Shown one piece after another: positions 83 through 49,454 of a stretch of DNA of 51,047 nt. The stretch spans positions 1-51,047 of IMG/VR virus record IMGVR_UViG_3300032516_002776. One strand, written 5' to 3'. Within the stretch, counting starts at the first letter, position 1. Each line of letters begins with the position of its first letter. The notes below the pieces were generated by a model. It was not told the origin of the DNA, did no database searches, and worked only from the letters and a program-made list of their open reading frames with translations. Both the position numbers and the translations under genes were made by a program. Source of the stretch: a virus (lineage: Duplodnaviria; Heunggongvirae; Uroviricota; Caudoviricetes).

Positions 83-388
83 ATGAAGAAATTCGAATTG
101 AAACAATTGATAAGAGAATGTTTAAAAGAAGGTCAAGAAGAAGACGCCGCCGTTCAGAGAGCAGCAAATAAAAATATGTATGGCGGCCAGAGCAATATGG
201 GATTTAGTGCAGATAATAAATTGAACCCAAACATCATAAAGGTTGACAAGAGAACATTGGAGAAGATTTCTGAACTTTTAGGAGAAGCGATAAATTCTGC
301 GGGAGATAATTTGGGCAGAGATGGAGAATATATATCAGATAAATTGGTGGCTGTGGACGATTTGGTGGATAAATTGTTAGGGTTATAA
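83..388 (+). CDS. Hypothetical protein with N-terminal KxxLKQLIxE...LKE motif (candidate head-packaged protein)
   Basis: Starts MKKFELKQLIRECLKE; TATTTATA at 69-76 just upstream. Confidence 0.6.
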   Translation: MKKFELKQLIRECLKEGQEEDAAVQRAANKNMYGGQSNMGFSADNKLNPNIIKVDKRTLEKISELLGEAINSAGDNLGRDGEYISDKLVAVDDLVDKLLGL

Positions 389-394
389 ATTATT

Positions 395-868
395 ATGTCA
401 TCAGCAGGAAGATATTTTAGTGAGCGGGATTTAAAACTTATAGACAGTATAAATGCTGAGCTTATGGGTGATATTATTCAAACGATTGTTTGGGCGTATA
501 AGGTTTGTCCAACGGAAACGCAGACAAATATTTATGGTGAAACCGACCAGCAATCTGGAAAGTTTTATTTTCCTGGAATAGAAATCACTGCTATGATTGA
601 CCGTGGGGATATAACTACGGATGATGCTGATTTTGGGCCGGATCGAGACCAGACAGCGGTGTTTAAATTTCGTGAAAAAATGCTTAAATTGTGTGATTTT
701 TATCCACAAGTTGGCGATATAGTACTGTTTAATGAAAGGTATTATGAAATAGACAATGTTGTGCAAGAACAACTCTTGGGTGGACAAAGCGAAAAGAGCC
801 TTTCAATCATCTGTAATACCCATTACGCAAGATTCAGTAAAATCAATATATTAGACAGACAAAATTGA
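395..868 (+). CDS. Neck/head-closure protein (T4 gp14-like)
   Basis: Motifs 'TNIYGE...', 'FGPD', 'PQVGDIVLFNERYYEIDNV' resemble myovirus neck/head-closure proteins; lies directly before a gp15-like gene. Confidence 0.65.
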   Translation: MSSAGRYFSERDLKLIDSINAELMGDIIQTIVWAYKVCPTETQTNIYGETDQQSGKFYFPGIEITAMIDRGDITTDDADFGPDRDQTAVFKFREKMLKLCDFYPQVGDIVLFNERYYEIDNVVQEQLLGGQSEKSLSIICNTHYARFSKINILDRQN

Positions 869-911
869 TACATTTGTTATTAACTCCCCAAAAATTTTAC
901 TATTTATATTT

Positions 912-46612: not shown

Positions 46613-46621
46613 TCTTGTGGT

Positions 46622-47398
46622 ATGACTGAATCGAATTTTGTAGACACATCAAAAGTTTATTTACGACAAATTGACAAATCTGTTGCAAAAAGTATGATTA
46701 TTACTTTTCATTATAGTCATAAATGGACACTTTGCCAAGTCGCTTACGGAATTTATTATAAAACAGATATTCATCTTGGCTTTATTGAAGGCACCCAAGA
46801 TGAACTGATAGGCTGTATAGTTTATGCTCAACCCGTAGGAAGAAGCGCAGCTGCTAGTATTACGCCCTTGCTGAATATTAGTGAAGTCTTTGAACTCACG
46901 CGGCTTTTTATACATGATGGCTATGGTAAAAATATAGAAAGTTATTGTATAACTCAATCGTTTAAACTATTACACAGAGATTTTCCACACATTAAATGTG
47001 TGTTGTCTTATGCAGATGGCGAACAACACCATAAGGGAACAATATATCAAGCCGTCGGCTTTATATATCAAGGCAACTCAAGTATTGCATTAATGCCCAA
47101 TTATAGTGTTAGTTTGGAGGGACCGCCAAATTATAAGTGGATTCATAGTCGGACAGTAAGTTCGACTTGGGGCAGTCATAATGTAGAGCATTTAAAGAAA
47201 GCAATTGGAAAAACGTTTTGGAGAAAGAAAGAAAGCAATAAACACCGCTATGTTATATTCATTTGCAATAAGATTTTAAAGAGAAAATTGATTGAGACAT
47301 TAAAGCATCCTGCCATAGCATATCCTAAAAGTACGGAACACAAAGACGAAATCGAAGAGATTAATTGTCAAAATAAACCGAAGAATTCATTTTTCTGA
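46622..47398 (+). CDS. Mom-like adenine-modification / GNAT-fold protein
   Basis: 'FHYSH', 'ELTRLFI', 'VLSYADGEQHHKGTIYQAVGFIYQG'. Confidence 0.7.
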   Translation: MTESNFVDTSKVYLRQIDKSVAKSMIITFHYSHKWTLCQVAYGIYYKTDIHLGFIEGTQDELIGCIVYAQPVGRSAAASITPLLNISEVFELTRLFIHDGYGKNIESYCITQSFKLLHRDFPHIKCVLSYADGEQHHKGTIYQAVGFIYQGNSSIALMPNYSVSLEGPPNYKWIHSRTVSSTWGSHNVEHLKKAIGKTFWRKKESNKHRYVIFICNKILKRKLIETLKHPAIAYPKSTEHKDEIEEINCQNKPKNSFF

Positions 47399-47423
47399 TA
47401 ATATTTATATAATACAGACGATT

Positions 47424-49454
47424 ATGAGTAAAATTTCACTGAAAAAGATTCTAAAAAAACCGCTTAATGAAATCGGTTATAATGATGATGATTGGAATAA
47501 ACTACAGAAATTGCAAAAATATGGTGAGCCAAATTATCATAGCATTCTTTTTAGTAAGGCTACGGCAAATTCCCTTAAAGCCAATGAATTTTTACACAAT
47601 TTAGAGCGTGAAATTATAGAAAAAATAGTCTCACTTTTTCACACCAAATCAGAAGTTGGTTATGTTGAAATTATGAATGTCACAAAACACTATCCATTAG
47701 ATACAGTCGTGCGATTATCCAATGTTATAGCTAAAACATTGGGATTTGTACATAATTCCGGAAAGTATGGCTACATAAAAACTCCTGAATATCTTGACCC
47801 TAATCTTGAAGAAGAAATTATGCCACCCGCTAAAGATTGGGCAGAAAAATTTGGAAAACCACTTGACCGCGGCGAAGCGCGTGGTTTTATGGATAAGGTT
47901 TCGATAGAAATCGAAAACAAGCTGTTGCCTCTTTTTACTAATAACTCCATAGTGTTATTTCGTGATATTGTGGTTGCTACTAAAGGATTGCCCTTAGATA
48001 CTACTATGTATTCTTCACAGAGGCTAGCAAAGAAATACGGATTTAAAATTAACGCAGATAAAAGTGGCTATATAAAAGATAATAGTGCCATTGCTGAACA
48101 AGGAAATAAGAATATGACAAAAACCCAATTTATTAATTTAATAAAAGAATGTATGCAAGAAAAACAGTTGAATGAGTCTGACCCATCTTATCAGCTTAAA
48201 AAGAAGATGGAACAGATTAGCAATCAAATTAGCTATCTTGAGGACAAGGATGACTATTATCGTGCTGGCCAGTTAAAGAAAGAATACGCAAAATTAAATG
48301 CACAATTGGTAAATCTTTCCAAGGGACCAGATGACAATTTAGTAAAGACAGAGGGGCGAGATGACTTAGAATTTCTTGGTGGCGGCGACGAAACAGATGC
48401 CGAAGAAATGGGCACTAAGACTAATGTATTGAAAGAAATAGATAAGGTTGTAAAAGAATATAAAGGTGGTCTTAAACTTGATGTTAAAGAATTGAATTAT
48501 GCGGCTCAAGAGGAAGAAACTGATGTCAGTAAATTGTTTTTAGCAGATGTATTGTATGAAAGATTGAGCAATGTATTTTATAATAGAAATGCATCTAAGG
48601 AATCCACTTATATTCAAGTTAATAAACCAGCGGTTAAAGATGCAATCATTCTAAAAATAGGTGATAATCCTATGGCATCCACGCTTGTTCCAGATGCTGG
48701 TAAATTGGTACCGCCAATTTCTTCTGATAAGGGAGTTGGTGTATTAAGTGGTGGTATGAACAAATTTGTTAGTCCTTACAATGGACCACAAAAAGAGTCT
48801 ATGTTGCGGGAAATTGTTGGAAAGAAATTAAAGAGTCTTATTAAGGAATCCATCGAAGAAATAAAGGTAGAAAAAGCAAAGGGCAATATTACTATCGTGG
48901 AAGATATATTCGAAGATATTGTAAAGAAAGAAAATAAAGACGCTATAATGGTTGCAAATGACGCTGGTAATTTTACCATTCATAATTGTGGCTCACACTA
49001 TTTTGATATTCGGCCGATGTGGAAAGAAAACTTTGATGTGGTGTATTTCAAAGATAAAGCTGACCGCGAGAGAAAGTTTAATTTGAATCCAAAAGCATTA
49101 AAAGAATATGTTAAATCGAAATTTGATGACGAATCAAATTATGTAATAAAAGCATATAATAAAAATGCGCCAAATCAGAAAGATGATAATAAAAAGGTAG
49201 AAGGCCAACCAGTAAGTGCCAATATAACTATTAAAAAGGTTTCTGATACCAAAAACGAAAACAAGGACTACAACGAAAAGCAAGTAAAGAAAGACGAAGA
49301 TTTGCCTGATAAACCCTTAGCCGAAGTCAAAAAGTTTGATAAACTATCTGACCACAGTGTTAAAGGTGATAAAGTCAAGTTTACACCGCCAAAGCAAGAT
49401 AAAAAAGAAAAAGCACATCTTATCAAGTTGAAGAATAAAAAACTAAAAACATAA
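47424..49454 (+). CDS. Modular hypothetical protein with three KxxLI motifs, LNE/LKE/LRE sites and a tandem duplicated domain
   Basis: MSKISLKKILKKPLNE; internal MTKTQFINLIKECMQEKQLNE; KLKSLIKESIEE; TATTTATA at 47402-47409. Confidence 0.6.
   Translation: MSKISLKKILKKPLNEIGYNDDDWNKLQKLQKYGEPNYHSILFSKATANSLKANEFLHNLEREIIEKIVSLFHTKSEVGYVEIMNVTKHYPLDTVVRLSNVIAKTLGFVHNSGKYGYIKTPEYLDPNLEEEIMPPAKDWAEKFGKPLDRGEARGFMDKVSIEIENKLLPLFTNNSIVLFRDIVVATKGLPLDTTMYSSQRLAKKYGFKINADKSGYIKDNSAIAEQGNKNMTKTQFINLIKECMQEKQLNESDPSYQLKKKMEQISNQISYLEDKDDYYRAGQLKKEYAKLNAQLVNLSKGPDDNLVKTEGRDDLEFLGGGDETDAEEMGTKTNVLKEIDKVVKEYKGGLKLDVKELNYAAQEEETDVSKLFLADVLYERLSNVFYNRNASKESTYIQVNKPAVKDAIILKIGDNPMASTLVPDAGKLVPPISSDKGVGVLSGGMNKFVSPYNGPQKESMLREIVGKKLKSLIKESIEEIKVEKAKGNITIVEDIFEDIVKKENKDAIMVANDAGNFTIHNCGSHYFDIRPMWKENFDVVYFKDKADRERKFNLNPKALKEYVKSKFDDESNYVIKAYNKNAPNQKDDNKKVEGQPVSANITIKKVSDTKNENKDYNEKQVKKDEDLPDKPLAEVKKFDKLSDHSVKGDKVKFTPPKQDKKEKAHLIKLKNKKLKT

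Follow-up and report, generated by a model that had tools for sequence, protein, structure and literature searches.

The capsid-targeting sequence (CTS) of the internal proteins IPI, IPII and IPIII of bacteriophage T4 was reportedly the subject of work by Mullaney and Black in 1996. In the T4 records, IPIII starts with MKTYQEFIAE↓A (the arrow marks a cut or a putative cut throughout), gp22 with MLKEQLIAE, gp24 with MAKINELLRE and gp21 with MNEPQLLIE. Ten N-terminal residues suffice to target IPIII to the head, positions 4 and 7 serving targeting and positions 8 and 10 serving processing (PMC9026906; PMC3012670), and the protease gp21 cleaves after L/I-x-E (PMC9026906). Here we present an analysis of the first 51 kb (positions 1 to 51,047, which we call the window) of a 115-kb IMG/VR contig with 33% GC, IMGVR_UViG_3300032516_002776, in which otherwise unrelated open reading frames (ORFs) start with nearly the same peptide of 11-16 residues, hereafter the tag. 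The phage is a large, uncultured T4-like myovirus of a distant lineage, and the literature that we searched held no description of tags of this kind in that lineage. The tag is probably the T4 capsid-targeting and propeptide signal in a lengthened form, which the prohead core would recognise and the S77 prohead protease would clip.

The tag follows the consensus M-[KT]-K-x-[EQ]-L-K-Q-L-I-x-E-V-I-x-E. A preliminary description of the window had listed ten ORF starts with this motif (83, 12354, 16638, 16952, 17454, 17861, 21642, 33980, 35443 and 47424), all of which agree with the DNA letter for letter, and three internal copies, which are likewise present at 18731-18772, 48114-48161 and 48822-48860. 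The same ORFs, of 105, 84, 83, 132, 494, 79, 166 and 101 residues, are called by public pipelines where this phage occurs in other samples. A hidden Markov model (HMM) built from nine tags, with a threshold of at least 8 bits, was scanned against the whole 115-kb contig and a reversed-sequence control. It found 11 matches in the contig, every one at an ORF start and beginning 2-19 residues past the upstream stop codon; the reversed sequences yielded 0, and a chance origin of the tag is rejected. Two of the 11, weaker members, lie beyond the window, at 100770 and 85141, and within it the start at 47424 is a weak match (below 8 bits) and that at 17861 a moderate one. When a core pattern lacking the Met requirement was scanned across 2.7 Mb of related phage DNA, 41 of its 59 distinct matches had a Met exactly 5 residues upstream, 57 lay within 40 residues of an upstream stop, and 2 were truly internal. 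Glu stands at tag position 12 in 9/9 tags and at position 16 in 7/9, preceded by I/L/V-x; a tag carries one or two (L/I/V)-x-E sites, the core reading KQLI[KR]E↓V and the second site, (V/I)-x-E, following four residues on. The helix is amphipathic, falling within the top 1-3% of shuffles.

At the DNA level the same residues are spelled with a variety of synonymous codons (four for Leu, three for Ile and three for Val), the sequence upstream of the tags is unconserved, and several tagged genes overlap the preceding stop codon. The synonymous variation and the unrelated upstream DNA therefore indicate selection on the peptide and not on a DNA cassette. A recombination or regulatory DNA cassette (a promoter or translation-start module) that is copied from gene to gene, as PeSL cassettes are in T4-type phages, would account for the first 20 nucleotides common to 16638 and 16952, and Lys codons after the ATG can favour initiation; however, past those 20 nucleotides the codons diverge synonymously, several tagged genes are translationally coupled and have no intergenic DNA, and the tag is retained in relatives at 50-60% protein identity. 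The synonymous codons together with the unrelated upstream DNA largely refute the copied module, which we regard as highly implausible.

The relatives used for comparison were G001 (296 kb, 100% complete, tail sheath 60% identical), G006 (sheath 66%), G009 and G010, with sheath identities ranging from 60 to 66%. The preliminary description had expected a gp21-type prohead protease elsewhere in the genome; such a protease, with a Peptidase_S77 match, is encoded in G001, G006, G008, G009, G010 and a further contig described below (L304), but not on the contig of the window. The E-values are 1e-25 to 1e-29 in G001, G006, G009 and G010 (1e-27 to 1e-29 for G001 and G006), and the G001 and G006 proteases match the PHROG head maturation protease at 1e-55. 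Relatives also encode a Gp23 capsid protein with PDB matches to solved T4 gp23 structures, and the head genes of G001 and G006 run in the order large terminase (TerL), gp20-type portal, a conserved 288-residue protein, a small core protein, the S77 protease, scaffold-like proteins and Gp23. The further expectation that the capsid would carry the same kind of site was borne out for relatives by alignment, in which the T4 cuts FLTE↓AEIGG (gp23, Glu65↓Ala66) and LLRE↓S (gp24, Glu10↓Ser11) line up with QQLIKE↓ATSTG in G006 and QQLLNE↓ATATG in G001. The predicted capsid site is conserved among 21 distinct capsid N-termini, reads KQIVSE↓ANVTG in Flavobacterium phage vB_FspM_immuto (host Flavobacterium sp. 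LMO8; hereafter immuto), and in its form QQLIKE↓A resembles the tag core. The conserved core protein beside the protease opens with the same type of helix (for example M..KKIIRELVEEVIEE↓MTGTS), and just four columns of the family are invariant, one of them the Glu at the end of this helix; compared with T4 gp67 and gp68 by hhalign, the core protein gave a probability below 1% and no detectable homology. In immuto the small protein before the protease reads MKKSQIVKAVQEVLEE↓MSTTG, and the 252-residue gp080 is also tag-like with a helix that terminates in Asp (MKKSQLRQIIKEALD↓AS), given which it may be packaged uncut.

The exact tag was searched as a degenerate DNA pattern in viral contigs and in 596 Gb of bacterial and archaeal genomes. 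It occurs in 26 viral contigs, 18 of them from this lineage (19 of 27 with the contig L304 included). That contig, the sole match in the bacterial and archaeal genomes, is 24.5 kb long with 27% GC and comes from a metagenome-assembled genome labelled Candidatus Omnitrophota (JALNZI010000017.1); it encodes a protease 49% identical to that of G001, 430 nucleotides ahead of the tagged gene, and therefore most likely represents a phage placed in the wrong bin. In L103, L105, L109, L113, L114 and L115 the tagged gene or genes sit between the 288-residue protein and the protease, in the order TerL, portal, 288-residue protein, tagged gene(s), core protein and protease, and in L122 nine tagged genes come directly after the protease. 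These are the positions of scaffold and core genes, as would suit the idea of the tagged proteins as paralogues of scaffold or core proteins, with a helix that serves assembly and degradation, so that they would be consumed inside the prohead and not delivered. The same idea gains from the matching helix of the conserved core protein and from T4 gp22, gp67, gp68 and gp21, which also open with short peptides ending in L/I-x-E. Against it, the bodies behind the tags are mutually unrelated, absent in close relatives and scattered across the genome, and a scaffolding role fits poorly because some tagged proteins in relatives are enzymes, namely an NT5C nucleotidase and a DUF6267 protein with a KxDG motif that, by eye, resembles that of ligases. 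We consider it quite unlikely that the tagged proteins are scaffold paralogues.

The portability that the preliminary description attributed to the peptide is visible as gain or loss of the tag between orthologues. A 17-residue tag heads the NT5C nucleotidase of G001 and is missing from six orthologues, including that of the window at 10380-10901, and the immuto protein has an N-terminal extension ending in LLEE. A family of 381-398 residues encoded upstream of gp13 bears the long tag in certain relatives and in G006 begins with a short MIKL-type sequence, and the exact ten-residue tag in T4 format, MIKLKDLLLE, occurs at least 15 times in G001 and 0 times in the present contig. Pfam searches with tagged proteins from relatives matched DUF6267 and, weakly, a leucine-rich repeat, and no other family. 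Between 207.5 and 217 kb of G001 (L092) there is an array of at least ten paralogues that start with MIKLKDLLLE, continue with a shared IFVPRRMEDR...YIRNGSKG block and end in variable C-terminal parts; one paralogue of the array has a weak leucine-rich-repeat match.

Some of the tagged genes also share an upstream element, the box TAT[AT]TATA, which was counted within 45 nucleotides before the start codons of 142 contig genes. It precedes 11 of the 142: five tagged genes, two tail or baseplate genes and one leader of the operon that ends in 12354 are among these, so that 5 of 11 tagged genes have it against 6 of 131 others (Fisher p = 4e-4). In G001 and G006 the box precedes portal, sheath, tube and neck genes, and in G001 it is enriched before genes of the structural region (12/37 versus 35/302, p = 0.002). 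The box resembles the T4 late promoter, TATAAATA, and is a putative late promoter. The TATTTATA form ends 3-6 nucleotides before the ATG of four genes (69-76, 901-908, 10368-10375 and 23018-25), two of which are tail or baseplate genes; if it acts as a -10-type late promoter, the mRNAs of these four genes would therefore be leaderless or nearly so.

If the tag acts as a capsid-targeting signal, the peptide would form an amphipathic helix that docks a newly made protein onto the prohead scaffolding core, and the gp21-type (S77) prohead protease would cut after its (L/I/V)-x-E. The tag would thus be clipped during head maturation while the cargo stays in the head with the DNA; its proposed later entry into the host along with the DNA, for which the T4 internal proteins are the analogy, is the least supported step. 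This proposal of targeting and protease release, made in the preliminary description, is favoured by the S77 protease and Gp23 of the lineage, by the match to the capsid site, by the position of tagged genes in the head operon and by portability; its weak side is the presence of the same peptide in a prophage that has no S77 protease.

Several further observations weigh against it. Neither Peptidase_S77 nor Gp23 had a match on the 115-kb contig, which is rated 38% complete by CheckV, and because the contig has no head genes the evidence on protease and capsid comes from relatives and synteny. A search for a virion proteome paper on the closest cultured relatives found none. The (L/I/V)-x-E motif is short and frequent in helices, the tag is 11-16 residues long against 10 in T4, and its similarity to the T4 CTS is limited to the pattern. 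Several tagged genes lie within the tail and baseplate module, nothing marks the cargo as injected effectors because the cargo bodies match no known function, and the box was assigned as a late promoter in an AT-rich genome. Lastly, eight of the 26 viral contigs, a high-GC group (52-61%), share one 81-residue protein, starting MTKAELKQLIREVIAE, that has the tag as its N-terminus (L099, at 4413-4658, L100, L101, L106, L108, L111, L119 and L120). In the two of these contigs that were searched (CheckV completeness 93-100%, one flagged as a provirus) there was no S77 protease, and since an unrelated, near-complete high-GC prophage thus carries the tag and no protease, the peptide is not strictly tied to the S77 protease; its tag may be a case of convergence. 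An amphipathic helix with a role outside the capsid, for instance in oligomerisation, in membrane association or in binding a shared partner, would accommodate this prophage, the tagged genes among tail and baseplate genes and the lack of any known cargo function. It would nevertheless leave unexplained why Glu is strict at positions 12 and 16 of the tag, why the tag matches the capsid site, why tagged genes are placed in the head operon and why the peptide is restricted to the lineage (19 of 27 matching contigs), and we judge such a role unlikely.

Within the window, the tagged genes, all on the plus strand, fill variable slots between conserved genes. The first, at 83..388, encodes 101 residues starting MKKFELKQLIRECLKE (HMM 25.7 bits), has a TATTTATA box at 69-76 and is flanked by gp13, just outside the window, and by a 157-residue neck-module gene. 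At 12354..12854 a 166-residue ORF with the 11-residue tag MKTKLKQLIPE (21.6 bits) is the final gene of the operon 10380-10837-12354, whose leader at 10380 is preceded by TATTTATA at 10368-10375. A tight gene run with four tagged genes is headed by 16638..16955 (105 residues, MKKSQLKQLIKEVINQSLNE, 27.5 bits, with TATTTATA at 16611-16618); tagged ORFs also lie at 16952..17206 (84 residues, MKKSQLKQLIHEVIQE, 30.3 bits), 17454..17852 (132 residues, MKRIELKRLIKEVIQE, 25.9 bits) and 17861..19345, a multi-module protein of 494 residues (MERLEFKEFLKEIVGE, 19.9 bits) in which an acidic linker rich in Pro comes after the internal tag-like helix KLKLKEQIKKMINE (18731-18772). The 79-residue ORF at 21642..21881 (MNKQGLKRLIREVIDE, 28.0 bits) is directly upstream of the baseplate-hub gene, and relatives have a tag-like small gene at the equivalent position. 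Farther on are 33980..34339 (119 residues, MTKNELKQLILEVIDE, 28.1 bits, TATATATA at 33954-33961), 35443..36084 (213 residues, MTKIKLKQLIEESAIE, 22.0 bits, TATATATA at 35421-35428) and 47424..49454, a protein of 676 residues with three modules of about 230 residues, each headed by a tag-like helix, and with TATTTATA at 47402-47409.

The bodies behind these tags have no similarity to one another, just as the preliminary description had said. No Pfam, PHROG or ESM Atlas family was found for the window cargo bodies, G001 has no orthologues of them apart from module 3 of the 676-residue protein, and tblastn of the bodies against all fetched loci returned homologues of module 3 only. Homologue searches with 16638-16955 and with module 2 of the 676-residue protein returned the same phage only, and single-sequence AlphaFold2 models were unusable, with a mean predicted local distance difference test score of 37 for 35443-36084 and 54 for 33980-34339.

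The 676-residue protein bears on the internal copies of the motif. Its first helix, at 47424-47471, is weak; the second, at 48114-48161, is complete with its Met (MTKTQFINLIKECMQE); and the third, KKLKSLIKESIEE, lies at 48822-48860. Residues 449-661, which make up module 3, are homologous to a free-standing tagged protein of 220 residues in G001, and a further homologue of module 3 in L058 also begins with a tag-like helix. Because the free-standing homologue is tagged, the copy at 48822-48860 is a former N-terminal tag kept after gene fusion. The internal recurrence noted in the preliminary description is real for all three of its copies, with an origin by gene fusion established for this one only. 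It is possible, if doubtful, that the lineage builds polyprotein cargo in this way, fusing tagged genes whose products the prohead protease would recut at internal tags, and that dozens of fast-changing proteins are loaded into the head through mimicry of the core-protein assembly helix. Were this true, it would be a polyprotein strategy so far undescribed for tailed phages, and it would allow the injected proteins of uncultured phages to be listed by a sequence rule. Elsewhere in the window, the 506-residue protein at 10837-12357 consists of a nucleotidyltransferase and two further fused domains; orthologues of the nucleotidyltransferase are free-standing proteins of 226-235 residues in G001, G006, L001, L002 and L004. 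The LNE border in the 506-residue protein (...ALSLNE before AIE) is an old fused C-terminus, because the G001 orthologue ends there (...KQSLNN, then stop).

As the 115-kb contig is rated 38% complete, the whole genome would be about 300 kb. Two longer public contigs of the same phage, of 108 kb and 205 kb (samples SRR9616645 and ERZ27248201), have gp13 as the gene directly upstream of 83-388, so the left end of the contig is truncated within the neck module. The window carries tail genes (a 1079-residue tail sheath, a baseplate hub and others), and farther along the contig there are, by eye and by synteny, gp32-, recombinase- and helicase-like genes with orthologues in G001. By capsid protein, the nearest cultured phages are Microcystis phage Mel-JY01 and immuto (52% identity), followed by Rhodothermus phage RM378. 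IMG/VR holds 407 relatives of the sheath and 584 of gp13, and the lineage is very common in metagenomes and widespread in freshwater and marine settings; a gp13 query against viral contigs found relatives at no more than 73% identity, and 20 kb compared by megablast with the phage collection had no match.

A few observations concern neighbouring genes. The longer contigs of this phage reach beyond window position 1; there, a few kilobases upstream of gp13, a 157-residue Macro-domain protein and a DUF4326 protein are encoded on the opposite strand, within the structural region. Classical TTGACA-N17-TATAAT promoters precede many non-structural genes (upstream of 46622 and 49511, and at 87-97 kb of the contig); even though a Flavobacterium phage is among the closest cultured relatives, these promoters do not resemble the consensus usual in Bacteroidota. 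In G006 the large-terminase gene (40772-43560, L212) is broken into ORFs of 280 and 405 residues that enclose a 240-residue ORF, and the second piece opens with intein-like sequence. Portals of 830-1066 residues in L105, L114, L115 and L122, against about 650, suggest inserted elements.

Should the tag work as proposed, a simple sequence rule would pick out the head-carried, and probably host-delivered, proteins of abundant uncultured jumbo phages. The internal proteins of T4 include anti-restriction factors such as IPI*, and for that reason the tagged ORFans would be good anti-defence candidates. Cultivable relatives such as immuto and Mel-JY01 might further be engineered with the tag as a packaging handle. 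More broadly, the T4 CTS principle would extend to relatives with only about 30-35% capsid identity to well-studied T4-like phages, and the length of the tag would evolve while the register of the protease site is kept.

Among phages outside this lineage, the giant phages phiKZ, 201phi2-1 and SPN3US have many head proteins, ejection and inner-body proteins among them, that are cut after Glu by a gp21-related protease, packaged and ejected with the DNA (PMC5694885, PMC7411985, PMC10052503). They differ from the window in their S/A-x-E sites, their long and diverse propeptides and their capsid lineage. Encapsulin cargo-loading peptides and P22 scaffold-helix fusions demonstrate that a short portable peptide can direct unrelated cargo into a shell of the HK97 fold; unlike the window tag, those peptides are C-terminal, are not removed by a protease and are unrelated in sequence. 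The T4 proteins gp67 and gp68 find only a positional analogue in the core protein of the lineage. The window tag differs from the T4 CTS in having two nested (I/V)-x-E sites and a start two residues longer, in occurring also as complete copies inside multi-module proteins, and in marking about 7% of the genes on the contig where T4 has a handful of carriers. Like the T4 CTS, it is an N-terminal peptide on unrelated, fast-evolving accessory proteins, with hydrophobic residues at i, i+3 and i+4 and an L/I-x-E ending, and the lineage has T4-type gp20, gp21 and gp23. As in the processing by gp21 of T4 gp23, gp24, gp22, gp67 and gp68, small proteins of the head module open with peptides made of a helix and a Glu. 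The MIKLKDLLLE of G001 is in the same register as the T4 MKTYQEFIAE, and L6, L9, I10 and E12 of the window tag correspond to Y4, F7, I8 and E10 of T4, shifted by two.

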